The translations under genes and the position numbers were made by a program. 64,000 nt of DNA from Bacteroidales bacterium (GTDB lineage Bacteria; Bacteroidota; Bacteroidia; Bacteroidales; UBA932): positions 14,367 to 78,366 of the forward strand of contig JAFSJK010000063.1 in the NCBI GenBank assembly GCA_017439305.1, in the 5' to 3' direction. The notes beneath the pieces are model-generated. The model was not told the DNA's origin. It did not search any database and saw only the letters and a list, made by a program, of their open reading frames with translations. Numbering within the stretch: the stretch's first letter is position 1; the number at the start of each line of letters is the position of its first letter. Positions 7,790 through 26,806 of this stretch are shown piece after piece.

Positions 7790-9166
7790 TTATAATTCAA
7801 ACAATTTGTTCCAACCGGTTTCGGCATCCCAGACGCCGTCGTTGGCCAGGGCGATGCTGTATTCGGGGCGGCCCGGCAGCAGCGGGTCCTCCAGGGCCAG
7901 GTACACCGTGCCGTGCTCGGCCGGGAGGTCGAACTGGACGTCCATCTCATGGGCACCAGGCTGCCACTCCCGGGGGTCTTCGCACGGGACGGAGGTGCTG
8001 GTCCCGTTTTTCTCCACGAAAACCAGCAGGGCCGTGCGGGGATTCATCGGAGCGGCGAAACCCTTGTTGGCAAACTTGATCTTGACGGTCATCTTCTTCC
8101 CAACCTCCCGCTTGGCGGGATAGGTGACCTCGTCGAGTACCAGGCGGTAACCCAGCCGGTTCTCGATTTCCTCCATGCAGCCGGAATTATTCCAGCGGTT
8201 CAGGACGGAACTGTTGTAGCCGCTGTTCAGGTAAGTCCAGTGATAATCTTCCATGTCCTTGATGGAAGCGTCACAGGTGCAATAGTTGGACACTTTGCAG
8301 GTCTCCCCGCCCATCAGGGTGTAGCGGGAATCGCGCTTCCAGAAAGTCCGGTCGCCTTTCTCGTTGTCAAAGGTGCCGTAATCGTCGGCCGACGCGCCGA
8401 AACAGTCGTTGTGGCCGCCCAGGCGGGACAGGTCCGACAAGTCATGGGCCGTCTCCGCCGTCAGGGTGTCCTTCATGGAGAGGCCGTACATCCGCATCTT
8501 GAACTGCGGGGTGCGCAGCGCGACCTGGCGGCTGTCCGGCAGGGCTCTCAGCAAGGCGTCCGTCAGGTGCCGGCGGGGATTGTAGTCGGCGTCCGTCTTC
8601 GGGTCCATGATGAAGTTTTCGGTGTAATACCACTCGCCCCAAACGCCTACGAAGCCGGCCTGCAGGACGAAGATTACATCCGCATTTTTCTGAAGGAGCG
8701 GCCGTAACTGGGCCACGTGCCGAAGGACGACCTGCTCTTCAGGGTCCCAGGGCTTGGCACTCTCGCTGTTCTGGTAGGCAAAGCGCAGGACGCATTTGAC
8801 ACCGGCCTCCCGGAGGGCGTCAAACGAAGTCTGGATCATGTCCAGGTAAGCCTGCGAGATGTCCCCTTTCATGAATTCGGTGAGGTAGAAGCCCACGTAC
8901 ATGAGCGTCTTCCCGTCGGCACGCAGCGCCTTGGCGGCCGAAACCCGGACGGGATTCGACGCGCTCTTGATGTCGATGGCGCCACCGTAGAAGCCCCTTT
9001 CCGGATTGACCAGGGGCACAGTGCTTTCCGTATAATGGACGGTCGCCACGTCTCCGTCCACGGTGATCTCACCGTAGTCGGTTTCGACGGGGCCCTTTTC
9101 CTGGCAAGCGAAGCACAGGAAGACAGGGAGGGAAAGCAACTGGATGAAGATGGGGAGTCTCATCAC
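7790..9166 (-). CDS. DUF4874/DUF4832 lipoprotein, putative glycoside hydrolase
   Basis: NPERGFY, QAGFVGVWGEWYY, GGHNDCF, MGGETC, LGYRL...GFAAPMNPR. Confidence 0.8.
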   Translation of the reverse strand: MMRLPIFIQLLSLPVFLCFACQEKGPVETDYGEITVDGDVATVHYTESTVPLVNPERGFYGGAIDIKSASNPVRVSAAKALRADGKTLMYVGFYLTEFMKGDISQAYLDMIQTSFDALREAGVKCVLRFAYQNSESAKPWDPEEQVVLRHVAQLRPLLQKNADVIFVLQAGFVGVWGEWYYTENFIMDPKTDADYNPRRHLTDALLRALPDSRQVALRTPQFKMRMYGLSMKDTLTAETAHDLSDLSRLGGHNDCFGASADDYGTFDNEKGDRTFWKRDSRYTLMGGETCKVSNYCTCDASIKDMEDYHWTYLNSGYNSSVLNRWNNSGCMEEIENRLGYRLVLDEVTYPAKREVGKKMTVKIKFANKGFAAPMNPRTALLVFVEKNGTSTSVPCEDPREWQPGAHEMDVQFDLPAEHGTVYLALEDPLLPGRPEYSIALANDGVWDAETGWNKLFEL

Positions 9167-9175
9167 GACAATGCC

Positions 9176-11436: not shown

Positions 11437-13212
11437 TTAATGTCTGTTCTGCTCGATGCCGCTGGAGTTGATTTCGTCCAGGGGGAGGAGCAGCGCGATG
11501 CGCGGATCGTTCGGCTGGATGATCTCCCAGTCGTGGCAGCCCACGAAGCGACGGTCCAGAGGCAGCTTGTTGCGGAAGGAGTCGAAGGCGCTGTGGCCCT
11601 CGTAGCAGAGCTCGCGACGACGCTCGTCCAGTACGCAGGAGAGGGCGGAATCATAGCCGCGCTCCTTGATGTTGGAGGAGGTCATCAGGGCATCGCCGGT
11701 GAGGCCGGCACGCTTGCGGATGGTGTTCACGTCGTCCAGGGCCTGGCTGTCCTTGCCGGTCTTGGCATAGGCTTCAGCGCGGTTCAGGACCACTTCGCCC
11801 CAACGGAGGAACACCGGCGAAGTCATCATCGGCAGACCGTCCTGATAGCTGAACTTGGAGCAGTAGTAGATCGCATAGCTACCGCCCATGTTGAAGCGGA
11901 CGCCCTTGCCGCGGGTGAAGTTCGGACGGACATAGACGCGGGCCTTGCCGTCGGTCTTGATGCCCGGGAAGCCGGCATCCTCGACATAGTACTCGGTGTA
12001 GGTGTTCACAATGGTGGGTTTGGCCGTGTAAGGCTTGCCCTGGTAGATGAAGGTCACGGAACCGTCGGCCTTCTGGGTGCAGTCAAAGGCGAAGTCGTCG
12101 GAGCAGGAGTTGCTCTTGTCGTCGGACTTGATGGGGAAAACCACCGTCACCTTGTCGGTCGTGGCATAGCCCTGGCCCTTGTACTCCGGCATGCTGAAGT
12201 AAGCGGCGAAACGCTTGTCCTCAGGATAGCGGCGGAAATTATCGATGAGGTTCTCGTTCCAATAGTGCTCACCCCAGCCGTTGCCGTCCTTGATGTACAT
12301 GGAGGCGATGGAAGCCTCGGCGTGCTCGCCGGCCCAGTCGTCGTTCTGGTCCAGGCGGATGCACCAGATGGTCTCCGGACTGTCATAGGTGTGCGTGGGA
12401 TAGTCGGCGAAGTCGTAGCCTGACGTGACGGCGGACGGTGCGTGGGCAAGCAGTTCGTTGCACTGCTCGATGCACTTCTCATTCTCGCCCATGTACAGAT
12501 ACACGCGGGAAAGGAGGGCGGTGGCGGCGTCCAGGCTCACATAAGCCTTGTCGTTGCCCTTGATGCGCTCGCTCTCGCCGTTCGCGAGATACTTCTTGGC
12601 CTCGAGGAGGTCGTTGACGACGGCGTCGTACACCTCACCCACGGTGGCACGCTTGGTGGTGGAGATGTCCAGGTCCTGGCGCAGCACCACGCCCGGGTTG
12701 TCACGGCCCTGCGCATACGGCATCGCGAAGAGGTTCACGAGCTGGAAGTGCAGGAGGGCACGGAAGAAGTAGTTCTCACCGAGCAGATGGTCGCTCAGGG
12801 GCGATGCGCCCGGGACGATGGCGTCGATGTTGGAATTCGCAGCGTTGATGATCTTGTAGCCGATCCACCAGGTGTAGTAGATGTTCTTGTGGGTGGGATC
12901 CTCGCTGTACATGTAGGCCTCGGTGAACGGGTCCTCGGACTTACCGGAAACCGTCACGTTGTTTCCCCGGAGCTCAGCGAGCTGGAAGTAATGGCGGATG
13001 TAGTAGTTTCCGCTCTCACCGCCGCTCTGGCCCTTGTAGGCGATACGATCCTTGAACAGGGTGTAAATGCCATCGGTGGTGTAGACCGCCGAGGAAGGGT
13101 TCTCGGCCAGCTGGGCGGAGGTCATGGAATCCGAAGAATAGAAGTCCATGTTGCAAGACGCCAGGGCGAGGGCCGCAAGTACGATTGTTACGATGGTAAT
13201 TATCTTTTTCAT
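11437..13212 (-). CDS. susD: RagB/SusD family lipoprotein
   Basis: Lipobox LASC; GENYFFRALLHFQLVNLF; RWGEVVLNRAEA; DERRRELCYEGH. Confidence 0.95.
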   Translation of the reverse strand: MKKIITIVTIVLAALALASCNMDFYSSDSMTSAQLAENPSSAVYTTDGIYTLFKDRIAYKGQSGGESGNYYIRHYFQLAELRGNNVTVSGKSEDPFTEAYMYSEDPTHKNIYYTWWIGYKIINAANSNIDAIVPGASPLSDHLLGENYFFRALLHFQLVNLFAMPYAQGRDNPGVVLRQDLDISTTKRATVGEVYDAVVNDLLEAKKYLANGESERIKGNDKAYVSLDAATALLSRVYLYMGENEKCIEQCNELLAHAPSAVTSGYDFADYPTHTYDSPETIWCIRLDQNDDWAGEHAEASIASMYIKDGNGWGEHYWNENLIDNFRRYPEDKRFAAYFSMPEYKGQGYATTDKVTVVFPIKSDDKSNSCSDDFAFDCTQKADGSVTFIYQGKPYTAKPTIVNTYTEYYVEDAGFPGIKTDGKARVYVRPNFTRGKGVRFNMGGSYAIYYCSKFSYQDGLPMMTSPVFLRWGEVVLNRAEAYAKTGKDSQALDDVNTIRKRAGLTGDALMTSSNIKERGYDSALSCVLDERRRELCYEGHSAFDSFRNKLPLDRRFVGCHDWEIIQPNDPRIALLLPLDEINSSGIEQNRH

Positions 13213-13229: not shown

Positions 13230-16200
13230 TTATTTAACGATGCAGACTGCTACGCGGTTGCTTTCCGGAGTTGCGGAAGCGTCGCGGTCGCCGCCCTTGG
13301 AGGAGCAAGAGATCCTGTCAGCGGAGATACCGGCATTCCGAAGCATTTCGGCCACGGTTTCAGCACGTTTCTGGGACAGTTCCCTGTTGATTTCGGAAGT
13401 ACCGGTAGCCGTGTCGGCATAGCCGGTGATTTCGATCTTGGCATCAGGATTGTCCTTGAGGATCTGAGCGATCCGGCCCAGCTTGAAGGCCTCGTCAGGA
13501 CGGATCTCAGCCTTGCCGATGACGAAGAAGAGGTCATCGTTGTAGGTACCATCGAGCGTGGAGGCAGGGACCTTCTTCTCGACGATCTTCTCCACAATCT
13601 TTTCCACGGGAACCTGCTTCTCGACAATCTTTTCGACCACTTTCTCAACCACGGCAGGAGCGACGTTGGAGAAGCTCGCAGGCTGGGCGGCCGGGGCCTT
13701 CTTGGCTCCGCCGAAGGTGATCTCGAGGCCAAGGACTACAGACAGAGGAACAGGATAGTTGCTGGAGTACAGACCGGCGTGGTGATAGGTGTCGCCATCC
13801 AGGCGGACTTCCGGGTCCATGCCGGAGAAACGGGACAGGGTGAAGATATTGTCAGCAGCCGCGTAGACGCGGGCATTGGCGATATTCGCCTTCTGGATGA
13901 GCGTCTTCGGCAGGTTGTAAGCCAGAGTCACGTTACGGAGACGGAAGAAACTGCCGTCCTCCAGGTAACGGGAGGAAGTACCGTTGGAACCATCAGCACG
14001 GGCGGCCACCAGCGCAGGGTGGGTGGCGACGTCGCCTTCCTTCTTCCAGCGCTTCCAGCCGAGGCCGTTCTTGATGGACATCTGGTTGAGGCCGGTGTAG
14101 GCACCGTCGGAGTCCATCTGCTCACGGTTCTTATTGTAGATCTGGTTGCCGAAGACGAAGTTGCCGTTGGCGCTGAGGGTGAAGTTCCAGAAGCGGAGGC
14201 TGGTGTTGATACCGCCGCTGAACATCGGGGAGGCCTTGCCCACCAGTTGCTGGGTGGCTTCGGCGAGCTTGTTGGTCACGGCGGACTTCATCTTGGCCTG
14301 CGTGTTTCCGTTCTCGTCGATGTAGAAGATCGGATTGCCGGACTCGTCCAGGTCGGGAACGAAGGTCTCCCACATCGGAAGACCGTTCTCGCGGTCGACA
14401 CCCAGCCACTTGGGCATGTACCAGGAGTAGACGTCCTCACCCTCGCGGATGACCTGGTTGACGTCACCGCGGTTCATCACGATGTCGGCGTGGCCCGGAA
14501 GCTCGATCACGCGGTTCTGGTTGAGACCCAGGTTGAGACCGATGTTCCAGCCGAAGTTCTTCCGGTTGAAGATGGCGCCGTCCGTGGCGAATTCAACACC
14601 CATGTTACGTACGGTGCCCACGTTGTCCATGACGGCGAAGAAACCGGTGGACGGGGACATCGGGGATTCCAGGAGGATCTTGGTGTTGATGGTGTGATAG
14701 AGGTCGATCGTGAAGTTCCAGTTCTTCAGGAGGGTGGCATCCAGACCGAGGCTGGTCATGTAAGCCTCTTCCCAACCGAGGTTCGGGTTGGCCATGCGCT
14801 CCAGGATGGCGGTCTTGGTGCCGTTGTACTGGCCGCTGAGGGAGAAGGTGTCCTGATAGGAGAAGGCCGGGATGTTGTCGTTACCGGTCTTACCGTAACC
14901 CGCGCGCAGCTTGAGGAAGGTCAGCGGGCTGTTCTTCATGAAATTCTCATTGGAGATAATCCAGGCTGCGGAAGCGCCCGGGAAATAACCGCCGCGATTG
15001 TTGGGACCGAACTTGTAGCTCTCGTCATAGCGGATGGAAGCGGTGAGGATGTACTTGCCCAGGTAGGAATACTGTGCCTGAGCGAGCCAGGCCCAGGAGC
15101 GGGAGTGGTAGTCACGGCCGCTCACGCTGCTCATCACGGTGTTGGAGAGGGAACGCTGGCCGATCGGGAACTGGATACCGGCAGCACCCATGTCGCGGGA
15201 ATAGCCTTCGCCATACTCCCAGCCCACGGTGGCGTTCAAGTCGTGGTCGCCGAAGGTCTTGTGGAACTTCGCGAGGTCGGTCGTGCCCCAGCCGGTCCAT
15301 TCGCCGTCACTGTTCTCGAGGCTGCCGCCGGTACCCATACCGTCATAGGTGCGGGGGTCGACGTAGTACTCGTAGAAGGAGTGGGAAGTGTCGTAGCGGT
15401 TCATGGAGGTGAGGGTGAGCCAGTCGGTCACGACCCAGACGAACTGGAGGTCGCCGGTAAGGCTCTCGCCATGTCCCTTGGAATAGTTGTAACTTTCACT
15501 GTGCAGCACGTTGGAGGGGTTCTGGGTCCACCAAGTACCGCCGCCGTAACCGTCGGAACGGGACTTGCCGTCCATGAAGATGTATTCTCCGGTAGAGTGC
15601 CACTTGCCGTTCTCGTCCTGTTCCATCACATAAGGGACGTCCCAAGGCATGGCATAGTAGGAATATTCCAGGGTACGCCAGGAAGAAGTGCCCTGGTCAT
15701 AGGATTTCGCGTAATTGAGACGCACCGACATGGTCAGACGGTCCGCGAGCGGAACCGACAGGTTCATGCGGGCGGAAGTCTTCTTGAAGTTGGTGTTGAT
15801 GAGGGTACCCTTCTCATTGTAGTGGTCGGCACTCACGAAGTAGTTGACCTTGCCAGCCTTGCCGGAAGCGGAAGCGTAGTAGTCCTGCACCATGCCCAAC
15901 TTGAAGTTGTTGTTCACCCAGTCGAAGTCCTGCTCCAGCAGGCTCTCGGGATAGGTGAGGTCGAACAGGGTCGAGGAGAACATGCCCTTCGCGTAGTTGT
16001 AGAGTTCCTTGGAGTTCATCGGGCGGAAGGTACCCATCAGGGCCTTCTTGATACCGCCGTTGGCCTTGAATTCCACGGTGGTATTGTCGGCCGAGCCGCT
16101 CTTGGTGGTAACCACGATGACACCGCCGGAAGCGGCCGCACCGTAAAGGGCGGTGGCGGAAGCGTCCTTCAGGACGGTGATGGTCTCGATGTCGTTGGGG

Positions 16201-16775
16201 TTGAAGGAACCGCCGGCGACGCCGTCCACCACATAGAGAGGACCCGCGCCTGCGGTGATGGAACCGGTACCGCGGATGCGGATGTCGGCATTGTCACCAG
16301 GCTGGCCGGAGCCGTTCATGACCACGACGCCGGCCACCTTGCCTTGCAGCATGTTACCCACGTCGTTGGAGCTCACGTCACGGAGCTTCTCACCGCTCAT
16401 CGAGACGACGGCACTGGAGAGTTCCGCTTTCTTCTGGGTAGTGTAACCCAGGACCACGACTTCGTCGAGGGCCTCGGTGTCGGGGTTGAGGGCTACGTTG
16501 ATGACAGCACGGCCGTTGATAGCTTCCGTCACGCTGACATAACCCAGGGACGAGAACGTAATCGTGGCGTTCGCAGGCGCCGTAATCACGAACTTACCGT
16601 CGAAATCGGTGATGGTTCCGTTTCCGCCGGAGAGCATGACTCCCGCCCCGATGAGGGGCTGGCCATCCGAGGCGTCCGTAACCTGGCCCGTGACGGTGAC
16701 GTTTTGGGCCGTTGCAGGGATGGCAAGCGCGATGGCGGCCATTACCGCAAGCAGGTAGGAATAGATTTTTCTCAT
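13230..16775 (-). CDS. susC: SusC/RagA TonB-dependent transporter fused to a C-terminal OmpA-like domain
   Basis: IRIRGTGS, PLYVVDG, VLKDASATALYGAAASGGVIVVTTK, FFRLRNVTLAY; barrel ends LGLEITF at aa 1021 (nt 13713); then 160 aa with VEKIVEK linker and ITGYAD..G...N..LS..RA..V. Confidence 0.92.
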   Translation of the reverse strand: MRKIYSYLLAVMAAIALAIPATAQNVTVTGQVTDASDGQPLIGAGVMLSGGNGTITDFDGKFVITAPANATITFSSLGYVSVTEAINGRAVINVALNPDTEALDEVVVLGYTTQKKAELSSAVVSMSGEKLRDVSSNDVGNMLQGKVAGVVVMNGSGQPGDNADIRIRGTGSITAGAGPLYVVDGVAGGSFNPNDIETITVLKDASATALYGAAASGGVIVVTTKSGSADNTTVEFKANGGIKKALMGTFRPMNSKELYNYAKGMFSSTLFDLTYPESLLEQDFDWVNNNFKLGMVQDYYASASGKAGKVNYFVSADHYNEKGTLINTNFKKTSARMNLSVPLADRLTMSVRLNYAKSYDQGTSSWRTLEYSYYAMPWDVPYVMEQDENGKWHSTGEYIFMDGKSRSDGYGGGTWWTQNPSNVLHSESYNYSKGHGESLTGDLQFVWVVTDWLTLTSMNRYDTSHSFYEYYVDPRTYDGMGTGGSLENSDGEWTGWGTTDLAKFHKTFGDHDLNATVGWEYGEGYSRDMGAAGIQFPIGQRSLSNTVMSSVSGRDYHSRSWAWLAQAQYSYLGKYILTASIRYDESYKFGPNNRGGYFPGASAAWIISNENFMKNSPLTFLKLRAGYGKTGNDNIPAFSYQDTFSLSGQYNGTKTAILERMANPNLGWEEAYMTSLGLDATLLKNWNFTIDLYHTINTKILLESPMSPSTGFFAVMDNVGTVRNMGVEFATDGAIFNRKNFGWNIGLNLGLNQNRVIELPGHADIVMNRGDVNQVIREGEDVYSWYMPKWLGVDRENGLPMWETFVPDLDESGNPIFYIDENGNTQAKMKSAVTNKLAEATQQLVGKASPMFSGGINTSLRFWNFTLSANGNFVFGNQIYNKNREQMDSDGAYTGLNQMSIKNGLGWKRWKKEGDVATHPALVAARADGSNGTSSRYLEDGSFFRLRNVTLAYNLPKTLIQKANIANARVYAAADNIFTLSRFSGMDPEVRLDGDTYHHAGLYSSNYPVPLSVVLGLEITFGGAKKAPAAQPASFSNVAPAVVEKVVEKIVEKQVPVEKIVEKIVEKKVPASTLDGTYNDDLFFVIGKAEIRPDEAFKLGRIAQILKDNPDAKIEITGYADTATGTSEINRELSQKRAETVAEMLRNAGISADRISCSSKGGDRDASATPESNRVAVCIVK

Positions 16776-16838: not shown

Positions 16839-18065
16839 CTATAATAAATCATTCAGGCCGATCAGGTTAAAGGCCCGGAAGTACTTGTCCATGTCGCGTT
16901 CGATCCGGCCCAGGACCACCTCTTCCGCGTCGATGCCGACCCGCTTCAGGTTGTCGAACAGGAAGCCGCGGGCGGCCAGGGGTTTCGGCTGCTGCCAGAT
17001 GTAACGGCAGCAGGTGGCGACGATCCAGTCCTGACGCTCCGGGGTAAGTTCGTGGAGATCCTTCCCCTGCTCGTCTTCGTGGAGCCATTTTTCCCAGCGA
17101 TGGGAAGCGTGGACGGCCTCCAGGAGGGTTTCCTTCATCCGGGACGGGACGGCGATACGGCCTTCCGCATCCAGTTTCTTCTCCACTTCCTCCAGTTCGC
17201 AGAGGGCGCGGTACTCACTCATCGTGAATTCGGGACCCACGTTGGCGGCGCCCATGCCGCAGAGAGGATACTCCTCGGGGTTAGCTACATCATCGGTATA
17301 GTGACCCTTGATGTAGCTACCCAGAGGACGTACCTTGGATGTCAGCCGCTTCGCCACTTCACCGTCAAACACCGTCGTGTCCAGGTCGGTGCCCACTTTC
17401 CCGACGATGAAGCAGGGCCATACATCCCCCAAACCAACGTTTACCAACCCTATTTTCAAATCATGGATGAAAGTGTCGAAAGTTGTTTCGTCCGCCAGGC
17501 CGCCGTGGACCTCTTCCGTACCCACCTCGTAGGAGATGGGGGGAAGGCCCTTTTCCTTGCGGAAACGCTCCACATGGTCGATGAGCTCGACGGTGCGGGC
17601 GGCCACCAGATGGATGTCGATGATCTCCCCCTTGGGGACGTTGATGTCCACCGTGGGATCCACGTGGATCAGGTCGTATCCGGCGAGGACGGCCGCCTCG
17701 AAGGACTTCTTCACGCCGTCCATCGCATCTTTCACGGACCATTTCTCCGTACGCTGCCGGTCCTTGAGCCAGGGACCGCCGTGGTCGATGGCGATGATCA
17801 CGGGGCCGGTGAAATGGACGCGTTCGGTCTCGAAACGCACCAGCCGCGTGAACTGCTCCTGGGTCATCCCGGTATAACCGCCGTCGCAGTCTACCTGGTT
17901 GAGGGTGGCCGCGAAGTAGATGGGCGCATTGTTGCGCTTGGCGGCGCGCAGGGAGGCGCGGATGACGGACGGGGAGTTGGGGCAGGCCGCGAAGATTGTG
18001 CGGCGGATGCCCGTCTCACGCTCCAGCTGGTCGATGCGGTGAAGGAGATTCTCAGTTTTTGCCAT
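16839..18065 (-). CDS. kbaZ: KbaZ/GatZ/AgaZ family protein (likely tagatose-6-phosphate 4-epimerase)
   Basis: Start reset to MAKTENLL; ATLNQVDCDGGYTG, DHGGPW, IHVDPT, EVGTEE, KGHYTD, ANVGPEF. Confidence 0.88.
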   Translation of the reverse strand: MAKTENLLHRIDQLERETGIRRTIFAACPNSPSVIRASLRAAKRNNAPIYFAATLNQVDCDGGYTGMTQEQFTRLVRFETERVHFTGPVIIAIDHGGPWLKDRQRTEKWSVKDAMDGVKKSFEAAVLAGYDLIHVDPTVDINVPKGEIIDIHLVAARTVELIDHVERFRKEKGLPPISYEVGTEEVHGGLADETTFDTFIHDLKIGLVNVGLGDVWPCFIVGKVGTDLDTTVFDGEVAKRLTSKVRPLGSYIKGHYTDDVANPEEYPLCGMGAANVGPEFTMSEYRALCELEEVEKKLDAEGRIAVPSRMKETLLEAVHASHRWEKWLHEDEQGKDLHELTPERQDWIVATCCRYIWQQPKPLAARGFLFDNLKRVGIDAEEVVLGRIERDMDKYFRAFNLIGLNDLL

Positions 18066-18069
18066 AGTT

Positions 18070-19194
18070 CTAATTATATAAGGTGACGCCTTCCACCACG
18101 CGGGAAATATTGCCCGAAACGGAAGGGGTGTCGGGGCACAGCCCCGTATCGATCGATTTGAACAGTCCCAGCATCTGGCCCACGAAAGCATAGCTCACGC
18201 AGCCGTAGCAGGGGGGCATGGAAGGCGTGATGCCGGTTTCCACGCAGAGGTCGTAGCTGTCTTCCTCCAGCTCGGGCTTCTCGAAGCAGGCCACCAGGAC
18301 GCCTTTCACGTTATTGTTGGCCTTGACCTGGCGGATGAGGTCCAGTTCATAGCGGCGCACCGCCGGATTCGGGGAGACCAGATACACCAGCAGAGAGTCT
18401 TCCTTCACGACGGCCTTGGGACCGTGGCGGAAGCCCAGGAAGGAGTCGAAGGCGCACATGACGGCGCCGTCGGTGAGTTCCTGGAGCTTGAGGCGGCATT
18501 CCTCGGCCACGCCCTTCAGCGGACCGGAGCCCAGGAAGATGGCGCGCTTGAAATCGCGCGAAGCCAGCCGTTCGATGGCCGGTTCATACTTGTACATGGC
18601 TTTCTCCACGCAGGTCGCCACCTCCTTGATGAGGGGGGCGTCTTCCTCGATGCGGCTGATATTGGCGATCATCGAGCAGCAGAGCAGCATGGTGGAATAG
18701 CTGCTGGTCATCGCCAGGGACAGGTCGTTGGTCTCCGGAGGGAGGAGGATGCAAAGGATGTTGTCCCCCTTGGTCCGGGCCAGCTGGCCGTCCTTGTTGC
18801 AGGTGATGAAGATATGGGCCACCTTACCGGCGGTCTTCTCCACGGCCTTGATGGCGCCCACGCTCTCCGGGCTGTTGCCGGAACGGGCGAACGACACCAG
18901 CAGCACCTTGCTGTCGCTGTCGAAGTACATCTGCGGGTTGGTGATGATATCGGTGGTGGCAATGGCGTGCGCCCCCTTGAAGCCAGTAGAGTACAGGGCC
19001 GGTTCCAAAGCGTCGCCGATGTAGGCCGACGTGCCGGCGCCCGTCAGGATGATCTCATAGCCGTCCCGGAGGTATTTACCCGTGAATTCCTCGATCTCCT
19101 GCTTGTGGGCACGGACATAATCCAGGGTCTTCAACCACATCCTGGGCTGCTGAAGGATCTCCTTGTAAGTGTTATAATCGTGTGTCATCGACAT
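18070..19194 (-). CDS. agaS: AgaS-type SIS-domain galactosamine-6-phosphate deaminase/isomerase
   Basis: EILQQP, ILTGAGTSAYIG, SFARSGNSPES, AMTSSYS, LKLQELT, LGFRHGPK, SRVVEGV; start 19194 or 19188. Confidence 0.9.
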   Translation of the reverse strand: MSMTHDYNTYKEILQQPRMWLKTLDYVRAHKQEIEEFTGKYLRDGYEIILTGAGTSAYIGDALEPALYSTGFKGAHAIATTDIITNPQMYFDSDSKVLLVSFARSGNSPESVGAIKAVEKTAGKVAHIFITCNKDGQLARTKGDNILCILLPPETNDLSLAMTSSYSTMLLCCSMIANISRIEEDAPLIKEVATCVEKAMYKYEPAIERLASRDFKRAIFLGSGPLKGVAEECRLKLQELTDGAVMCAFDSFLGFRHGPKAVVKEDSLLVYLVSPNPAVRRYELDLIRQVKANNNVKGVLVACFEKPELEEDSYDLCVETGITPSMPPCYGCVSYAFVGQMLGLFKSIDTGLCPDTPSVSGNISRVVEGVTLYN

Positions 19195-19208
19195 AGTATC
19201 TAGCTTTG

Positions 19209-19216
19209 CAAATGTA
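19209..19216 (-). promoter_or_regulatory. -7 promoter box (TACATTTG) for the agaS-kbaZ-susCD arm
   Basis: TAnnTTTG match just upstream of agaS. Confidence 0.55.
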
Positions 19217-19234
19217 TAAAACATCCGGCAAAAT

Positions 19235-19351
19235 GTTTCGATTTGTGTTTTGAAATTTTGAATTGAAAAAATCGAAACAGAGCCCGTAATTCTGCAACAA
19301 GCTCTGTTTCAATATATTATGGATATTTTAAAAATGTTTCAGACAGTTTCG
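19235..19351. promoter_or_regulatory. Candidate AgaR operators upstream of agaS
   Basis: GTTTCG 19235, CGAAAC 19273, GTTTCA/GTTTCG at 19336/19346 (10-bp spacing). Confidence 0.5.
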
Positions 19352-19357
19352 ATTATT

Positions 19358-20149
19358 TTATAGGACAACCGTTTCAACATTGATCTTCATCGCCTTGAGC
19401 TGCCGTTTCACATTGGCGGGCAGGTTATTGTCCGTAATGACCGTATGGATTTTCTGGGTTTCGGCGATGAAGGCGAGGGCCCGCTTGTTCACCTTGGAGG
19501 AATCGAAGACGGCAATCACCTCCCGGGCGCGGGAGATCATCACCTGGTTCGTGCTGGCTTCCTCCACGCTGGGGGTGGAGAGGCCGGTCTCCACCGAGAA
19601 ACTGTCCACGCCCAGGAACAGCTTGTCACAGTAGAAAAGCTTCAGGTTGCTCTCCGCCAGCGGCCCCACGATGGAGAGGCTGCTCTCACGCACGGAACCG
19701 CCCAGCAGGATAACCTTGAAACGCTTGTATTTCAATGCTTCCATCATCGCGACGATGGAGTTCGTGATGATCGTGAGATCCTCGAAACGATGCAGGTTCT
19801 TGACCACTTCCAGGGCGGTGGAGCCGGAGTCCACGAGGATGGTGTCCCCGTTCTTGATATGGGCAGCTGCGGCACGGCCAATGGCCTCCTTCTCGCGCGC
19901 GTTTACCAATTTCTTGAAGTTCACGTGCCGCTCCTCCACCTCGTCATTGATAGGGGAAGCTCCGAGGATGGCGCCTCCGTGAACCCGCACCAGCAACTTC
20001 CTTTCCTTCAGGATGCGAAGGTCCTTTCGGATCGTCACTTCCGAAACGCCGAAACGTTTGCTGAGTTCGCTTACATTGACGGAAGAGTCGTCCTTCAGGA
20101 GCTGAAGGATGGCGGAACGGCGGCCCTGGGCTGAATCGTAGATATCCAT
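19358..20149 (-). CDS. agaR: DeoR-family transcriptional regulator (AgaR-like)
   Basis: Start reset to MDIYDSAQGRR; ELSKRFGVSEVTIRKDL HTH; LVDSGST; DKLFLGVD; DSSK. Confidence 0.88.
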   Translation of the reverse strand: MDIYDSAQGRRSAILQLLKDDSSVNVSELSKRFGVSEVTIRKDLRILKERKLLVRVHGGAILGASPINDEVEERHVNFKKLVNAREKEAIGRAAAAHIKNGDTILVDSGSTALEVVKNLHRFEDLTIITNSIVAMMEALKYKRFKVILLGGSVRESSLSIVGPLAESNLKLFYCDKLFLGVDSFSVETGLSTPSVEEASTNQVMISRAREVIAVFDSSKVNKRALAFIAETQKIHTVITDNNLPANVKRQLKAMKINVETVVL

Positions 20150-20171
20150 TGAAATAGCATTAGTGTTGGGG

Positions 20172-20262
20172 CAAAGATAAGGAATATTTTTATACGAAAC
20201 AAAACGAAATACTTTTTTTACCCATAAATCGAAACCAAGTGAAATATTTTCGGTTTTTTTCG
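20172..20262. promoter_or_regulatory. Divergent agaR/pfkB promoter region with phased CGAAA/TTTCG repeats
   Basis: -7 box TATCTTTG (minus, 20172-20179); CGAAAC/CGAAAT 20195/20205; CGAAAC/TGAAAT 20230/20240; TTTCG 20248/20258. Confidence 0.6.
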
Positions 20263-20289
20263 CATCTTTGCAACATAAAACCACATAGC

Positions 20290-21243
20290 ATGAAAAAGTA
20301 CGACATCGCAGCCATCGGCGAACTCAACGTAGACATCATCCTGAACGGCATCGAATCGGAGCCGGAAATCGGCAAGGAAAAGTTCTGCAAGGACATGATC
20401 GTCACACTGGGCAGTTCCACGGCCATCTTTGCCGCCAATGCGGCCGCCCTGGGCAGCAAGGTCTGCTTCGTGGGCCTGGTCGGCCGGGATTCTTTCGGCC
20501 AGCTCGTCCGCACTTCCCTGGAAGCCAAGGGCGTCGCCACCCAGTTCATCGGCGAGGGGGACACCCCCACCGGCGCCACCATCTGCATGAATTACGGCGA
20601 AGACCGCGCCAACCTCACCTATCAGGGTTCCATGGACGTGATGGGTTTCGACCAGATTGACAAGAGCGTTTTCGACCTGGCCAGGCACATCCACCTTTCC
20701 TCCCTGTTCATGCAGAGCGCCCTGCTGAGGGACATCCATCAGGTACTGGACCTCGCGGCGGAAAAAGGCTGCACGGTGTCGCTGGACACCCAGTGGGACC
20801 CGATGGAGAAATGGGCGCTGGATTATCCCAGGGTGCTGCCCAAGGTAACGGTTTTCATGCCCAACGAGAAAGAGTTGTGCGCGCTTACCGGCAAGGATTC
20901 GCTGGATGACGCCATCGCCGAGGTGCTCCCCTGCCTGGGCGGAATCATGCTGGTGAAATGCGGCTCCAAGGGTTCCCTGCTGGTGAAGAAGGACGGCTCC
21001 CGGAAACTGCTCCCCGCTTTCCTGAACAAGGAAGTCGTGGATGCCATCGGCGCCGGCGACAGTTTCAACTCCGGCTTCATCAGCGCCTTCGTGAAAGGAC
21101 TTCCGGCCGAAGTCTGCCAGATAACCGGCAACCTTACGGGCGCGGTGAACACCACCGCCGCGGGCGGAACCGGTGCCTTCACCTCCCTGGAGGACGTCCG
21201 GAAGGTGTGCAAGGAGCGCTTCGGACAGGAACTCGCCCTGTAG
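20290..21243 (+). CDS. PfkB family carbohydrate kinase
   Basis: Start reset to MKKYDIAAIGELNVD; GSSTAIFAANAAALG; DAIGAGDSFNSGF. Confidence 0.9.
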   Translation: MKKYDIAAIGELNVDIILNGIESEPEIGKEKFCKDMIVTLGSSTAIFAANAAALGSKVCFVGLVGRDSFGQLVRTSLEAKGVATQFIGEGDTPTGATICMNYGEDRANLTYQGSMDVMGFDQIDKSVFDLARHIHLSSLFMQSALLRDIHQVLDLAAEKGCTVSLDTQWDPMEKWALDYPRVLPKVTVFMPNEKELCALTGKDSLDDAIAEVLPCLGGIMLVKCGSKGSLLVKKDGSRKLLPAFLNKEVVDAIGAGDSFNSGFISAFVKGLPAEVCQITGNLTGAVNTTAAGGTGAFTSLEDVRKVCKERFGQELAL

Positions 21244-21277: not shown

Positions 21278-22468
21278 ATGAAAACGAGAAAACTGCTTGC
21301 CTTGCTGCTGTTGTTGCCGCTGCTCACTTACTGCGACAAGAAGAACCCGGACCCGATCGAGGATGATCCCATCGAGAAACCCGAACCGGGACCGGTGGAT
21401 CCCGTCGACGAGGATCCCTATGCCGATGCGGCCACCGAGGTGAAAAACGGGGACCTCATCCTCGTGACCAACGAGAGAATGCAGGCTTTCCTGGAAGACG
21501 TAACCTACCCCGAGCGGGATTATAGCGAAACGCACATCCTGGACGAAAAATACGCCCCCACCGCCCCCGGCAACGCGGACAAGCCCCAGGAATACTCCAT
21601 CCGCTGGACGAAAGCCAACGCAGAGGGCGACAAGATCGTGAAACTCTGGGAGGATGACGGCTGGAGCCGCGAAATGACCGTCGAAAGCGGCGAATACTAT
21701 GTGAACATCATCAACCTCCGCCCGAACGCCCATTATCATTATGAGGTGAAAGGCGCGGGCGGCAAGACGGTGACTTCCGGCGAATTCGACACCAAGGGCC
21801 TTGTGTATCAAGTCCTTTTCAAGGCAAACGTGCGCAACGCGCGTGACCTGGGCGGCTGGAAGGCAGCCCGCGGCAAGACGGTGAAATACCGGATGATCTA
21901 CCGCGGCGGACGCCTGCAGCCCAGCACGCTCACCAGCAAGCGCGGCAAGGAAGACCTGAAGGCCCAGGGCATCCTGGCCCAGCTGGACCTGCGCGGCAAG
22001 AGCGACGTGCTGAGCGGTCCGACCGTGGACTACATGGACTTCTGCGCCCCTGTCATCGAGGAGGGCTACACCCAGATGCTCCGTGATGACGGCGCCAAGG
22101 TGAAGCAGTGCTTCGAATATATCACCCAATGCGTGAAGGACAACAAGCCCGTCTACTATCACTGCTCCCTGGGCCGCGACCGTACCGGCACCCTCACGAT
22201 GCTCCTCCTGGGCGTCCTGGGCGTGAACGAGGGCGACATTTCCAAGGAATACGAACTCACCCAGTTCGCTCCCTACGAGTGGGCCACCTCCGGTGGCGAG
22301 ACCACGAAGATGACGCGCCGGGCGGACTACAAAGGCGCCGCCAACTACATCTGGAACAACTTCGTCAGCGATGGCGAGACCTTTGCCCAGGGCGTGATGA
22401 AGTATCTGCTTTCCATCGGCGTGGAAGAGAAGACCATCCTCGATTTCTGCGCCCTGATGCTTGAATAA
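21278..22468 (+). CDS. Lipoprotein tyrosine-phosphatase-like (CX5R) enzyme with FN3-like domain
   Basis: Start MKTRKLLALLLLLPLLTYC; NARDLGGW, IYRGG, LDLR, HCSLGRDRTG. Confidence 0.85.
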   Translation: MKTRKLLALLLLLPLLTYCDKKNPDPIEDDPIEKPEPGPVDPVDEDPYADAATEVKNGDLILVTNERMQAFLEDVTYPERDYSETHILDEKYAPTAPGNADKPQEYSIRWTKANAEGDKIVKLWEDDGWSREMTVESGEYYVNIINLRPNAHYHYEVKGAGGKTVTSGEFDTKGLVYQVLFKANVRNARDLGGWKAARGKTVKYRMIYRGGRLQPSTLTSKRGKEDLKAQGILAQLDLRGKSDVLSGPTVDYMDFCAPVIEEGYTQMLRDDGAKVKQCFEYITQCVKDNKPVYYHCSLGRDRTGTLTMLLLGVLGVNEGDISKEYELTQFAPYEWATSGGETTKMTRRADYKGAANYIWNNFVSDGETFAQGVMKYLLSIGVEEKTILDFCALMLE

Positions 22469-22489
22469 TCAACAAAACACTGCATAGCC

Positions 22490-24028
22490 ATGAACAAGAA
22501 ATGCTGGGCCTTGATGCTCCTCCTCCCCCTGCTCGCTTTCTGCGGGAGCAAGGACGATCCCCAAAAAACGGACCCCGAACCCAAACCGGATGTCAAAGCC
22601 GAAATCGTTATCGACGGTGAGAGTGAATTCAACGTCGGCTGCGAAGAGGGATCCGGCACTTTGTCTTTCACGTCCAATGTCGATTGGACGGCAACGCCTG
22701 ACGATTCCTGGCTGACCGTGACCCCGACCAGCGGCAAGGCATCCAAGTCTCCCGTCACCGTCACGTTCTCTTACGGACAGAACCCGAACCAGAAGAACCG
22801 GTCCACCTATATCGTCCTCTCCGCCGTCGGTGCGGAAAAGAACATCTCCGTCGTCCAGGCCGGCGATCCCATGGCCGGTGCGGCTACGGAACTCAAGAAC
22901 GGTGACCGGGTCCTGGCCAACAGCCCGCTGGTAGAAAAGTTCCTTACCGAGGTGACTTACGAGGACAAGACCTATAAGGAATACACCAAGATCTTCGACT
23001 ACTACGGCGGTTTCGACGGCGTGAACCTCACCTGGGAAAACTGGGAGACCGAGTGGCCCGACGGTGACAAGCCCGAATCTTACAGCCTCCGCTGGAAGAA
23101 AGAGGACATGGAGTCCGGCAAGATCAAGCTCCATCTGGAGGACAAGCTCGGCTGGTCCGGCGACATGGAGATTGCGGAGGGTTCCCGTTATGTAAACATC
23201 ACCAACCTGGTTCCCAACGACAAGTATACCTACAAGGTGACCACGGCCAGCGGAAAGGTCCTCACCGAGGGCGGTTTCAGCACGACGGGGACTATCCACC
23301 AGTGCTTCTTCTCCGGTAACGTCCAGAAAAAGAAAGGCGTCACCCTCAAGGGCGAAGGCGCACGCAACTGCCGTGACCTGGGCGGCTGGAAGACGCTGGA
23401 CGGCAAGACGGTCAAGTACCGCATGGTGTACCGCGGCGGCCGCCTGAACGAGAAGTGGACCCCGTATCCGCTCAATGAGCAGGGCGAGAAAGAAGTCCTG
23501 TTCGAGGGCATCGGCGCCGAGCTGGATCTCCGCGGCAAGTCCGACGTGATCCACGAGCCGGCCGTCGAAGGCCTGCTCCACTGCTCCCCCGTCATCGAGC
23601 AGGGCGGCAAGACGATGCTCACCGCCGACAAGGAGAAGACCAAGGAGTGCTTCGAATTCGTGGTGAACTGCCTGCGCCAGGGCAAGCCGGTCCATTTCCA
23701 CTGCTCCCTGGGCCGCGACCGCACCGGCACCCTGAGCATCCTGCTGATGGGCCTGCTGGGCGTCCGCGAGGGTGACATCGCCAAGGAATATGAACTGACC
23801 TATTTCGCTCCCGTGGGTTACAGCGTGTCCTCCTCCGACAAGGCGAGCAACACCAAGCCCCTCTTCAAGAACACCCGCATGGAATGGGTGTACAGCGACG
23901 TGGTTCCCTACTTCTGGGAGCTCGCCGGAGAGGGAACCTTCGCCCAGGGCGTCGAGAATTACCTCCTGAACGTTGCCGGTGTCAGCCAGAAAGACATCGA
24001 TGATTTCCGCAACATGATGCTTGAATAA
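22490..24028 (+). CDS. Lipoprotein tyrosine-phosphatase-like enzyme with BACON domain (paralog)
   Basis: Lipobox AFC; FTSNVDWTATPDDSWLTVTPTSG (BACON); NCRDLGGW; HCSLGRDRTG. Confidence 0.85.
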   Translation: MNKKCWALMLLLPLLAFCGSKDDPQKTDPEPKPDVKAEIVIDGESEFNVGCEEGSGTLSFTSNVDWTATPDDSWLTVTPTSGKASKSPVTVTFSYGQNPNQKNRSTYIVLSAVGAEKNISVVQAGDPMAGAATELKNGDRVLANSPLVEKFLTEVTYEDKTYKEYTKIFDYYGGFDGVNLTWENWETEWPDGDKPESYSLRWKKEDMESGKIKLHLEDKLGWSGDMEIAEGSRYVNITNLVPNDKYTYKVTTASGKVLTEGGFSTTGTIHQCFFSGNVQKKKGVTLKGEGARNCRDLGGWKTLDGKTVKYRMVYRGGRLNEKWTPYPLNEQGEKEVLFEGIGAELDLRGKSDVIHEPAVEGLLHCSPVIEQGGKTMLTADKEKTKECFEFVVNCLRQGKPVHFHCSLGRDRTGTLSILLMGLLGVREGDIAKEYELTYFAPVGYSVSSSDKASNTKPLFKNTRMEWVYSDVVPYFWELAGEGTFAQGVENYLLNVAGVSQKDIDDFRNMMLE

Positions 24029-24038
24029 ATACGCAGAT

Positions 24039-25439
24039 ATGAAAAAACTGTTAGTACTCGCGGCCCTCGCCGCCGTAGCCTTGTCTTGTGCCAAGAAGGA
24101 CGAGTACGGCTACACTATCAAAGACAACCAGATCGTCTACAACACACCTGCCCGTCCGGCAGACCAGCAGTCCATGCTGGGCTTCGCCGCCGAACCCATC
24201 GAGCACGTCCGGGTCGGGCTCGTCGGCCTGGGCGACCGCGGCACGGGCGCCGTCCGCCGCTTCCCCTTCATCGAGGATGCCACCATCGTCGCCCTCTGCG
24301 ACCTGATGCCCGATCGCGTGGAGAATGCGCAGAAGATCCTTGAAGAGCTGGGAGCCCCCCGCGCCCAGTATGAGTACAGCGGAGAAGAAGGCTACAAGCA
24401 GCTTTGCGAACGGGACGACATAGACCTCGTATACCTGGCCGTGCCCTGGCAGCTCCACACCCCCATCGCCGTCTATGCGATGGAGCACGGAAAGCATGTC
24501 GCCATCGAAGTTCCTGCCGCCACTTCCATCAAGGAGTGCTGGGACCTGGTGAACACCTCTGAGCGCACGCGGAAGCACTGCATGATGCTGGAGAACTGCT
24601 GCTACGATTTCTTCGAGCTCACCTGCCTGAACATGATCCAGCAGGGCCTGTTCGGCGAGGTCGTCCACGTGGAAGGTTCCTACTGCCACAACCTGGAGCC
24701 CTATTGGGACCAGTACCAGGGTGACTGGCGGATGACCTACAACAAGGACCACCACGGCGACGTGTATCCCACGCACGGCATCGGCCCCATCTGCCAGGAC
24801 CTCAACATCCACCGCGGTGACAGGATGGAAGTCCTGGTGTCGATGGACACGGACGCTTTCGCCGGCCAGGAAATGGCTGACAAGCGCTATGGCAAGGGCA
24901 CCGTGGCGAAGTACGCCAACGGTGACAACACCTCCACCCTCATCCGCACCCATAACGGCAAGTCCATCCTCGTGGAGCACAACGTGGTGACCCCTCGTCC
25001 CTACAACCGGATGTACCAGGTGACGGGCACCAAGGGATTTGCGAACAAGTATCCCAACGAAGGTCTCGCCTTGGGTTCCGACCTGGTGAAGGCACCCGTC
25101 GCCTACGATGACCTGGATGCCGAAGAGTACATGTCCGATGCCGACCGTGACGTCGTCATGGAGCAGTACAAGCACCCCATTCTCAAGGAGTTGGAGGAAA
25201 AAGCCCGCGAAGTGGGCGGCCACGGCGGAATGGACTTCATCATGGACTACCGGCTCATCTACTGCCTCAAGCACGGCCTGCCGCTGGACCAGGATGTGTA
25301 TGACGCCGCCGAATGGAGCTCCCTCGTGGAACTGACCGAGGTTTCCATCAACCATGGCAGCATGCCGGTCGTGATGCCGGACTTCACCCGCGGTGAATGG
25401 AACAAGATCCAGGGTCTGACCTTCGCCAAAGCGGAATGA
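24039..25439 (+). CDS. GH109-like Gfo/Idh/MocA enzyme (NAD+-dependent alpha-N-acetylgalactosaminidase)
   Basis: VRVGLVGLGDRG, GKHVAIEVP, MMLENCCY, YPTHG, GGHGGMD, DVYDAAEWS; lipobox LSC. Confidence 0.85.
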   Translation: MKKLLVLAALAAVALSCAKKDEYGYTIKDNQIVYNTPARPADQQSMLGFAAEPIEHVRVGLVGLGDRGTGAVRRFPFIEDATIVALCDLMPDRVENAQKILEELGAPRAQYEYSGEEGYKQLCERDDIDLVYLAVPWQLHTPIAVYAMEHGKHVAIEVPAATSIKECWDLVNTSERTRKHCMMLENCCYDFFELTCLNMIQQGLFGEVVHVEGSYCHNLEPYWDQYQGDWRMTYNKDHHGDVYPTHGIGPICQDLNIHRGDRMEVLVSMDTDAFAGQEMADKRYGKGTVAKYANGDNTSTLIRTHNGKSILVEHNVVTPRPYNRMYQVTGTKGFANKYPNEGLALGSDLVKAPVAYDDLDAEEYMSDADRDVVMEQYKHPILKELEEKAREVGGHGGMDFIMDYRLIYCLKHGLPLDQDVYDAAEWSSLVELTEVSINHGSMPVVMPDFTRGEWNKIQGLTFAKAE

Positions 25440-26806
25440 CCATGTCCGGGAAACTGTTTTGCCTTTTCACGGCCGTCGCCTTTGCGACGGCCGTGATGGT
25501 AGGATGCAACAAGCCCGAGCCTGAAAAGGAACCGGATCCTGTTGAACTGGAGGATCTCAAACTCTCCGTGCCCGTCAAGGACAACTGGGTTTTCTCCGGC
25601 AAGCCTACGCTTACCGTCAACGTGGAGAATCCGAATCCGGTCGCCGCGAAAGCGGAAGTGAAGGTCCGGATCGCCACCGACACGAAGAAGGAAGTGACCA
25701 CTTTCACCAAGGAGGCGGAGGTGCCCGCCAAAGGGTCGATGGACATTGACATGACCGTTCCCGAGGAACTGGCTCCGGGCTTCTACAAGGCTTCCTGCTA
25801 TGTCAACAACCGGTCGGCCCGGATGTTCAACTTCGGCGTATCTCCCGAAAAGATCGTCTCCGCGCCCGACAAACAGGCCGACTTCGACACCTTCTGGGAC
25901 GCGACCATCACCCAGCTCGAGAACGTGGAAATGAACGAAACCCTCATCGAGCTTACGGACCGGAGTTCCAGCGCGGTGAAAGTGTATTTCGTTGAGATGC
26001 AGTCGATTCCGGATGGTCTGGAGGGCGATCCCGTCCTCATCCACGGTTACTACCTGGAGCCGCAGGACGGCCAGAAGCACCCCGTCCTCATCCACTATTT
26101 CGGCTACGACGACCTCAAGCCCGGCGGCAAGCTGGACTGCCCGTCCGGCGGTTCCAAGGCGGAGTTCGCCGAGTTCTACCTGTCCACCCGCGGCCAGATC
26201 ATCAACAACCGGACGGCCGCCCAGCGGAAGGACGGTGTGGAGAAAGATTTCGTGAACACCTACGGGGACTGGTTCGCCTTCAACTTCGGCGACCGCGACG
26301 GTTACTACTACCGCGGCGCCTTCATGGACTGCGTCCAGGCCGTCCGCTTCATGGCGACGCGGGAGACCAGCGACATGGACAACGTCTTTGCCGAAGGCTC
26401 CAGCCAGGGTGGCGCATTCTCCTATGCCGCAGCCGCGCTGAGCCCCTACCCGCTCCGGGCCATCGCTCCCTGCGTGGCCTTCCTCGGTGACTTCCCGGAC
26501 TACTTCAGCATCGTGGACTGGCCCGCGAACGTGGCCCTGAAGAACAAGGGTTCGATGACTGACGCGGAAATGTACACCTTCCTGTCCTACTTCGACACGA
26601 AAAACCTGGCCACGCGCATCACCTGCTCCGTCATCGCGTGCAGCGGCCTGCAGGACGGAACCTGCCCGCCGCACACCAACACGGCCCCGTACAACAACCT
26701 GACCGTCCAGGACAAGCAGATGTTCTACTACCCGCAACTGGCCCACCAGATTCCCAGCGACTGGAACAGCAAGTACATGAAGTTCTTCCGCGACCGGATC
26801 AAATAA
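25436..26806 (+). CDS. CE7/acetylxylan esterase family lipoprotein
   Basis: YYRGAFMDC, GSSQGG nucleophile elbow, GLQDGTCPP; ATGA overlap with GH109. Confidence 0.8.
   Translation: MTMSGKLFCLFTAVAFATAVMVGCNKPEPEKEPDPVELEDLKLSVPVKDNWVFSGKPTLTVNVENPNPVAAKAEVKVRIATDTKKEVTTFTKEAEVPAKGSMDIDMTVPEELAPGFYKASCYVNNRSARMFNFGVSPEKIVSAPDKQADFDTFWDATITQLENVEMNETLIELTDRSSSAVKVYFVEMQSIPDGLEGDPVLIHGYYLEPQDGQKHPVLIHYFGYDDLKPGGKLDCPSGGSKAEFAEFYLSTRGQIINNRTAAQRKDGVEKDFVNTYGDWFAFNFGDRDGYYYRGAFMDCVQAVRFMATRETSDMDNVFAEGSSQGGAFSYAAAALSPYPLRAIAPCVAFLGDFPDYFSIVDWPANVALKNKGSMTDAEMYTFLSYFDTKNLATRITCSVIACSGLQDGTCPPHTNTAPYNNLTVQDKQMFYYPQLAHQIPSDWNSKYMKFFRDRIK

Follow-up and report, generated by a model that had tools for sequence, protein, structure and literature searches.

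The genes considered here lie on a 64,000-nucleotide stretch of DNA from a Bacteroidales bacterium (lineage UBA932; GenBank assembly GCA_017439305.1, contig JAFSJK010000063.1, positions 14367-78366, contig C59 by our label), hereafter the window, whose numbering is used throughout. The assembly comprises 2.99 Mb in 90 contigs and is 92.6% complete. At 16839-21243, the window carries agaS, a kbaZ-like gene, a gene for a PfkB-family kinase and a regulator gene, agaR. Our reading of this segment, which we judge to stand at about even between right and wrong, is that it represents the cytoplasmic catabolic core and the regulator of a Bacteroidales polysaccharide utilisation locus (PUL) for a glycan with alpha-linked N-acetylgalactosamine (GalNAc) or galactosamine (GalN), probably also with phosphate, and that agaS, kbaZ-like and pfkB, here called the trio, would convert GalN to fructose-6-phosphate. 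We infer the substrates and reactions of this route from the encoded proteins. PfkB would phosphorylate the sugar at C6 to give GalN-6-phosphate, AgaS would deaminate and isomerise this to tagatose-6-phosphate, and the divergent KbaZ-like metalloenzyme would epimerise tagatose-6-phosphate at C4 to fructose-6-phosphate by a retro-aldol/aldol mechanism, so that no tagatose-bisphosphate aldolase would be needed. A broader claim is held more tentatively, somewhat short of even: that the trio may form a self-contained shunt from GalN to fructose-6-phosphate, in which AgaS would act together with a galactosamine 6-kinase new to the PfkB family and with tagatose-6-phosphate 4-epimerases that make up a new GatZ-fold subfamily. 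This shunt would have arisen repeatedly in gut and rumen Bacteroidales by loss of KbaY and would be the GalN/GalNAc catabolic route that a genomic survey of 2017 missed in Bacteroidetes. The features of the segment are as follows.

16839..18065, minus strand: KbaZ-like protein of 408 residues, a divergent GatZ/KbaZ-fold enzyme (PF08013) and proposed tagatose-6-phosphate 4-epimerase
18070..19194, minus strand: AgaS-type double-SIS galactosamine-6-phosphate deaminase/isomerase of 374 residues (TIGR02815, 341 bits)
19235-19243, 19270-19278 and 19346-19354: three exact AATCGAAAC copies between agaR and agaS, candidate half-sites of an AgaR operator
19358..20149, minus strand: DeoR-family AgaR-like repressor of 263 residues (NF040755, 237 bits against a cut-off of 260; DeoRC and HTH_DeoR domains)
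20227..20235, plus strand: fourth exact AATCGAAAC copy, in the divergent agaR/pfkB promoter region, ending 55 nucleotides upstream of the pfkB start
20290..21243, plus strand: PfkB-family sugar kinase of 317 residues (PF00294, 144 bits), the only kinase of the module and proposed GalN (or GalNAc) 6-kinase

That agaS, kbaZ and a PfkB kinase are present, as an earlier sequence-only reading had noted, is confirmed by profile matches, and only the start codons were trimmed. The kbaZ-like open reading frame (ORF; 16839-18191, minus strand) was shortened to Met43 at 18065, giving a length of 408 residues that fits the listed homologues, essentially all of 408-409 residues. The agaS ORF (18070-19224, minus strand) has its probable start at 19194 and its stop 4 nucleotides ahead of the kbaZ-like start, while the probable starts of agaR (ORF 19358-20284, minus strand) and of the divergently transcribed pfkB (ORF 20239-21243, plus strand) are at 20149 and 20290, respectively. 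AgaS, encoded by a single-copy gene in this genome, scores below the TIGR02815 subfamily cut-off of 529.2 bits and matches the AgaS homologues 3c3j, 3odp and 3i0z in the PDB over its full length (E 1e-66 to 1e-73).

Conservation of the trio and its linkage to an aldolase

The comparison covered 99 related loci, namely those of 19 genomes examined first and 80 further named loci from rumen metagenome-assembled genomes (MAGs), Tidjanibacter, Alistipes, Paludibacteraceae, Muribaculaceae and Porphyromonas, which display several arrangements. The trio is adjacent in all 19 of the genomes, usually with a divergent agaR and with susC/susD after the trio, and also in most of the 80 further loci. The 19 genomes are those in which a KbaZ-like protein was found by sampling, 10 among 200 from the order and 9 among 150 from the family, and within the order sample PfkB was found in exactly the same 10 genomes, as was AgaS, with one extra genome showing a truncated AgaS match without the first 47 residues. 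Given this exact co-occurrence and adjacency, agaS, kbaZ-like and pfkB form one functional unit, and the strict pairing of AgaS with the KbaZ-like protein argues that the product of AgaS is not itself glycolytic.

In nine genomes of other families, the operon continues with a class II aldolase of about 280 residues (PF01116, 278-292 bits), often followed by an Amidohydro_2 protein and often by a GH36-like protein. Linkage of this aldolase was scorable in 78 loci, its absence being counted only where at least 5 kb of flanking sequence was available on each side; the aldolase is adjacent to pfkB in 20 loci and missing from 58. On the KbaZ-like tree the linkage changes at least 4-5 times, and the window falls within a 30-member clade in which no scorable member has a linked aldolase. 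Between the window and members of this aldolase-less clade, the ratio of nonsynonymous to synonymous substitution rates (dN/dS) of the KbaZ-like gene is 0.02-0.09, lower than that of agaS and usually lower than that of pfkB from the same loci, making it the most constrained gene of the module. The aldolase has been lost repeatedly while the KbaZ-like protein stayed under strong purifying selection, which argues for a function of the latter that does not depend on the aldolase.

KbaZ-like paralogues of Alistipes adjoin an operon-type aldolase in loci without agaS or pfkB (L082:8554-11227, L091, L117, L120 and L123). In L082, a Zn-dependent alcohol dehydrogenase gene lies directly upstream and the locus may serve a gat-like polyol route. 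The contexts of these KbaZ-like and aldolase loci offered no clue to a kinase.

The two candidate enzymes and the competing readings

Membership of the KbaZ-like protein in Pfam PF08013 is supported by 117.6 bits (gathering score 26.7; residues 58-420 of the long ORF), and members of this family from Agrobacterium, Sinorhizobium and E. coli have been reported to interconvert tagatose-6-phosphate and fructose-6-phosphate (PMC11907403). Its AlphaFold2 model (pLDDT 90.5, pTM 0.90) finds E. coli GatZ (2fiq) and the S. meliloti protein 3txv as best Foldseek matches (TM 0.73-0.77, E 1e-19 to 1e-20), and the protein is predicted to adopt the extended class II aldolase-like TIM barrel of these two structures. 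For GatZ, Asp87-His88, Glu171, His257 and Cys20 are proposed to bind the metal and to start the retro-aldol epimerisation (PMC11907403). When aligned with GatZ, KbaZ and the S. meliloti protein, the window's protein retains all five residues as D94, H95, E184, H255 and C28, which are invariant in 20 Bacteroidales sequences, and lacks a C-terminal segment of 23 residues. Among 886 representatives (50% clustering), two clusters from sediment metagenomes consist of fusions of a HAD phosphatase, a cupin glucose-6-phosphate isomerase and a KbaZ-like protein (P0127 and P0275; L149:254-2737), an architecture that links the subfamily to hexose-6-phosphate interconversion.

The best family and PDB matches of PfkB are kinases of unphosphorylated substrates, including YdjH, ribokinases, 2-keto-3-deoxygluconate kinase, fructokinase and adenosine kinase, and the known tagatose-6-phosphate kinases LacC and Pfk-2 are not among its 60 best PDB matches. 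PfkB falls outside the LacC/FruK/Pfk-2 subfamily (TIGR03168, 54.8 against 216.4 bits; LacC model NF010033, 26.6 against 469) and below the tagatose kinase equivalog NF049991 (84.4 against 420), on which S. meliloti TagK, 27% identical to PfkB, scores 429.5. The ESM Atlas places it in generic "carbohydrate kinase" clusters only. No other kinase is conserved across the approximately 100 loci compared, PfkB being the sole kinase seen there save for one APH/HAD protein in genome G044. One argument for the trio-only route is that its only pathway-specific kinase resembles a free-sugar kinase. General phosphofructokinases of E. coli can phosphorylate tagatose-6-phosphate, as an acidobacterial preprint states for Pfk-2.

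The sequence-only reading had found no KbaY/AgaY aldolase, phosphotransferase system (PTS) or NagA/AgaA deacetylase in the window; this holds, and searches of the whole 92.6%-complete assembly likewise returned no KbaY/GatY-type subunit orthologue, no aga-type PTS IID (PF03613) and no NagA (TIGR00221). NagA is present in four relatives. Class II aldolase matches (PF01116) occur on contigs C13 and C86 only, with none on the window's own contig, and the C13 match is the housekeeping Fba (NF005481, 620 bits). Contig C86 is 3.1 kb long and encodes the C-terminus of an FGGY kinase, a 322-residue protein without a family match and the first 132 residues of a class II aldolase whose gene runs off the contig (L002:2-1890). 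This partial aldolase was considered as the missing KbaY and rejected as an orthologue, since it is just 36% identical to the operon aldolase, is no closer to it than Fba is and lies beside an FGGY kinase; it could still substitute. A LacD-type class I aldolase was also discarded, as the sole PF01791 match of this genome classifies as DeoC; PF01791 gave one match in each of the five genomes checked (this assembly, G330, G347, G044 and G249). A search with PF00274 gave no match, yet the controls were equally silent, making it uninformative. Whole-genome searches of ten aldolase-unlinked genomes found just one class II aldolase in each of nine, with 70-91% identity to the housekeeping Fba; completeness of these nine ranges from 85% to 100%, with eight at 94% or more and some at 98-100%. 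Genome G044 (100% complete) carries the trio with housekeeping Fba only and without NagA.

The main rival explanation, which we consider unlikely, is textbook chemistry with an unlinked aldolase. PfkB would then be a tagatose-6-phosphate 1-kinase, tagatose-1,6-bisphosphate would be cut by the housekeeping Fba, the C86 aldolase or another aldolase that the assembly lacks, the KbaZ-like protein would be a non-catalytic helper and a GalN/GalNAc kinase would be encoded elsewhere. Several observations weigh against the trio-only route. Orthologous operons of other families read agaS, kbaZ-like, pfkB, aldolase, a layout that looks ancestral and fits a deaminase, a tagatose-6-phosphate kinase and a KbaYZ aldolase, and their PfkB proteins are 45-49% identical to that of the window, orthology that suggests one PfkB function throughout. 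The Alistipes loci keep the KbaZ-like protein beside an aldolase although agaS and pfkB are absent, and in the close relative G318 an orthologue of the operon aldolase lies apart from the trio, next to an MFS gene. The present genome has the second, partial class II aldolase on C86, and absences from an assembly that is 92.6% complete and split over 90 contigs are no proof. Furthermore, no PfkB-family galactosamine kinase was found in the literature searched. Yet the textbook explanation has to reckon with a housekeeping Fba that stands alone in nine of the ten aldolase-unlinked genomes, several of them 98-100% complete, and class II fructose-bisphosphate aldolases generally discriminate strongly against the tagatose epimer. 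The distance of the C86 aldolase from the operon aldolase, together with its FGGY kinase neighbour, also speaks against it, as do the position of PfkB outside the LacC/FruK/Pfk-2 subfamily and the lack of a second conserved kinase in the loci compared.

The epimerase assignment faces objections of the same direction. The sequence-only reading had drawn on the tagatose-6-phosphate 4-epimerases of Agrobacterium and Sinorhizobium, and this homology proved not to be transferable. The KbaZ-like protein lies outside the agaZ_gatZ equivalog (TIGR02810, 94.5 bits against a cut-off of 568.8, on which E. coli GatZ and the S. meliloti protein score 704 and 669 bits) and below the PRK15458 (81 against 707) and PRK15052 (54 against 579) cut-offs. 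At 20-25% identity to the characterised epimerases it is too distant for direct transfer of function, and its substrate could differ. In addition, Glu44 and Lys279, which distinguish GatZ/KbaZ from class II fructose-bisphosphate aldolases (PMC11907403), are changed to Ala and Asn.

These two substitutions could make space for a C1 phosphate, and they feature in another explanation that we regard as improbable. Here, PfkB would be a tagatose-6-phosphate kinase, and the KbaZ-like protein would either epimerise tagatose-1,6-bisphosphate to fructose-1,6-bisphosphate or act as a self-sufficient aldolase, in line with its full class II aldolase-type set of metal and acid/base residues. The adjacency of pfkB and kbaZ-like in most operons also favours it, as does one fused gene. 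This KbaZ-like/PfkB fusion, from a sediment metagenome, occurs on a single contig (P0129; L150:70-2331); it would fit consecutive enzymatic steps better, a point against the trio-only route, and may also be an artefact of a merged gene call. Still, the bisphosphate explanation leaves every locus without an entry kinase, assigns a phosphorylated substrate to a PfkB that resembles free-sugar kinases, makes the KbaZ-like protein redundant wherever the aldolase is present and has no precedent among GatZ-family members, none of which is known to act on the bisphosphate.

Taken together, the aldolase-free GalN route put forward in the sequence-only reading gains from the strict trio, from aldolase loss alongside a constrained KbaZ-like protein and from the placement of PfkB outside LacC/Pfk-2, and is held back by the epimerase homology that does not carry over and by the aldolase-bearing orthologous operons that fit the textbook pathway.

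Regulation and the surrounding polysaccharide utilisation locus

Exact AATCGAAAC copies number four in the 64 kb, all in the two intergenic regions flanking agaR, and these predicted sites precede both transcription units. Across 75 related loci, the TCGAAAC core occurs at 13-fold higher density in the 300 nucleotides around agaR. This placement and enrichment make it likely that pfkB is co-regulated with agaS and kbaZ-like, and AgaR may repress both divergent promoters via TCGAAAC-type sites.

The catabolic segment is embedded in a SusC/SusD PUL spanning approximately 1400 to 26800 of the window, and the part of the contig that precedes the window (14 kb) contains unrelated genes only. Its other features are listed below.

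2668..3537, minus strand: EamA/DMT transporter with 10 transmembrane segments (PF00892, 95.8 bits), candidate inner-membrane sugar importer
3553..10579, minus strand: alkaline phosphatase, SdiA-regulated/phytase-like protein, DUF5106 protein and two DUF4874/DUF4832 proteins
11437..13212, minus strand: SusD-family lipoprotein (PF07980 and PF14322)
13230..16775, minus strand: SusC-type TonB-dependent transporter (TIGR04056, 738 bits), directly downstream of kbaZ-like
21278..24028, plus strand: two Y_phosphatase3 (CX5R) lipoproteins (PF13350, 106 and 97.6 bits), the second with BACON (48.9 bits) and FN3 domains
24021..25439, plus strand: glycoside hydrolase family 109 (GH109; alpha-N-acetylgalactosaminidase family) lipoprotein (PF21252, 130.7 bits; GFO_IDH_MocA; lipoprotein signal)
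25397..26806, plus strand: AXE1/CE7-like serine esterase with a lipoprotein signal (PF05448, 152.8 bits), candidate extracytoplasmic deacetylase

The SusC transporter bears an OmpA-like domain at its C-terminus (Pfam OmpA, residues 1083-1171). In the proposed scheme, GH109, a GH36-like enzyme, the phosphatases and an exported esterase or amidohydrolase at the surface or in the periplasm would release galactosamine or GalNAc, which the EamA-type transporter, with orthologues in 9 of 19 clustered related loci, would bring into the cell. All 15 AXE1-like orthologues examined have a signal peptide with a lipobox-like Cys, and signal peptides also occur on the Amidohydro_2 and GH36-like proteins encoded in related loci. 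Export of the candidate deacetylases and of the GH36-like enzyme, together with the lack of NagA in this assembly and in G044, would be consistent with removal of the acetyl group outside the cytoplasm and uptake of GalN rather than GalNAc. The AXE1-like protein as a cytoplasmic GalNAc-6-phosphate deacetylase was ruled out by the export signals of its 15 orthologues. In Paludibacteraceae-type operons, an exported AXE1-like gene is found between the cytoplasmic kbaZ-like and pfkB genes (L025:8171-9586; L113, L114, L116, L125 and L133).

Genes for Amidohydro_2 and GH36-like proteins recur just after the catabolic genes of related loci (L027:12287-15470; GH36-like in 13 of the 19 loci L025-L043 and in most of L055-L134). 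The pair may comprise a periplasmic GalNAc deacetylase and an alpha-galactosaminidase, comparable to the A-antigen system of Flavonifractor plautii. The window has neither gene after its catabolic genes, and a GH36-like homologue (46% identity) is encoded on contig C7.

Exported phosphoesterases are unusually numerous in the locus and include the two CX5R Y_phosphatase3 proteins, the alkaline phosphatase and the phytase-like protein (3553-6334 and 21278-24028), and the G044 variant has three purple-acid-phosphatase-like proteins instead (L025:2-7199). The occurrence of different phosphatase types at the same module suggests that the target is a phosphorylated glycan with GalNAc or GalN, e.g., a teichoic-acid-like polymer. 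The wealth of phosphatases also lends something to an explanation we think very improbable, in which the AgaS-like protein acts on a different amino or keto sugar phosphate from the glycan and the KbaZ-like protein and PfkB act on its product; AgaS, AgaR, KbaZ-like and PfkB all score under curated NCBIfam cut-offs. However, AgaS matches solved AgaS proteins over its full length, AgaR falls just short of its model cut-off, and GH109 in this locus and GH36-like proteins in relatives belong to families that both include enzymes cleaving alpha-linked GalNAc.

The closest public relatives are rumen Bacteroidales MAGs, the nearest being RUG12336. The locus appears mosaic in its ancestry, as the KbaZ-like protein is 99% and PfkB only 82% identical to that of RUG12336, and among the sampled genomes the closest KbaZ-like protein is from another genus (87%), while a genome of the same genus holds a 62% copy. 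These uneven identities suggest that rumen Bacteroidales have recombined the locus or exchanged it horizontally. In the final 8 kb of the window (56000-64000), G+C content drops from about 0.60 to 0.43-0.51.

Comparison with known systems

Mucins, blood-group antigens and polymers of microbial surfaces all contain GalNAc and GalN as major constituents. Among gut genomes surveyed in 2017, the agaS/agaA pathway was confined to three phyla, the Actinobacteria, Firmicutes and Proteobacteria (PMC5583593). If the proposed route is correct, a PUL-embedded pathway without PTS or aldolase would partly fill this gap for rumen and gut Bacteroidales, and proteins so far labelled "non-catalytic aldolase subunit" or "carbohydrate kinase" would gain catalytic roles. 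It would also add a divergent tagatose-6-phosphate/fructose-6-phosphate epimerase subfamily, of interest to tagatose biocatalysis. Repeated loss of the aldolase constitutes a natural experiment indicating that this GatZ-fold protein is more than a chaperone of KbaY. Tagatose-6-phosphate 4-epimerisation by the GatZ family is itself already known from galactitol and tagatose catabolism and from E. coli GatZ/KbaZ (PMC11907403). The literature searched contained no such epimerisation in amino-sugar catabolism, no such pathway in Bacteroidota and nothing relevant on Alistipes with AgaS. An acidobacterial preprint noted an orphan kbaZ without kbaY and left it uninterpreted.

The E. coli aga/gat systems (AgaS, KbaY/KbaZ and GatY/GatZ) share with the window an AgaS-type deaminase, the DeoR-family AgaR and a GatZ/KbaZ-fold gene beside agaS. 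They differ in that no PTS, AgaA/NagA or KbaY orthologue was found here, a PfkB kinase stands in place of PTS phosphorylation, the KbaZ-like protein is only 20-23% identical to GatZ/KbaZ and the genes lie within a SusC/SusD locus. The non-PTS GalNAc pathway of Shewanella (AgaK, AgaAII, AgaS, AgaZ and AgaY) likewise replaces the PTS by a permease and a kinase, with AgaS acting next. That pathway, as reported by Leyn and colleagues in 2012, uses a BadF-type kinase, a cytoplasmic deacetylase and the AgaY aldolase.

The rhizobial tagatose/galactitol route of Agrobacterium and Sinorhizobium (pSymB) also combines a PfkB kinase with a GatZ-fold protein, without an aldolase and with fructose-6-phosphate as proposed end product. 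Its structural representative is 3txv, which, judging by the wording of PMC11907403, probably corresponds to the rhizobial epimerase that has been characterised. Both rhizobial proteins, encoded side by side in S. meliloti, qualify as true equivalogs, of TagKinase with 429 bits and of agaZ_gatZ with 669 bits, whereas those of the window score 84 and 94.5 bits, and the input here would be an amino sugar entering via AgaS.

Outside Bacteroidales, the nearest relatives of the KbaZ-like protein (35% identity) are encoded on an IncF plasmid of Klebsiella pneumoniae (L145:6362-10250, CP128789.1) and in Listeria monocytogenes (L146:4045-10012), again with no KbaY gene adjacent. They share the Asn at the Lys279 position of GatZ and likewise lack Glu at position 44, with Ile there instead of the Ala of the window. 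Their genes directly follow fructose-type PTS IIB/IIC genes and are not found with AgaS or PfkB; in the Klebsiella plasmid, a transaldolase gene comes next, with a transketolase and a HAD hydrolase nearby. These loci look like another uncharacterised, aldolase-less use of the KbaZ-like subfamily.

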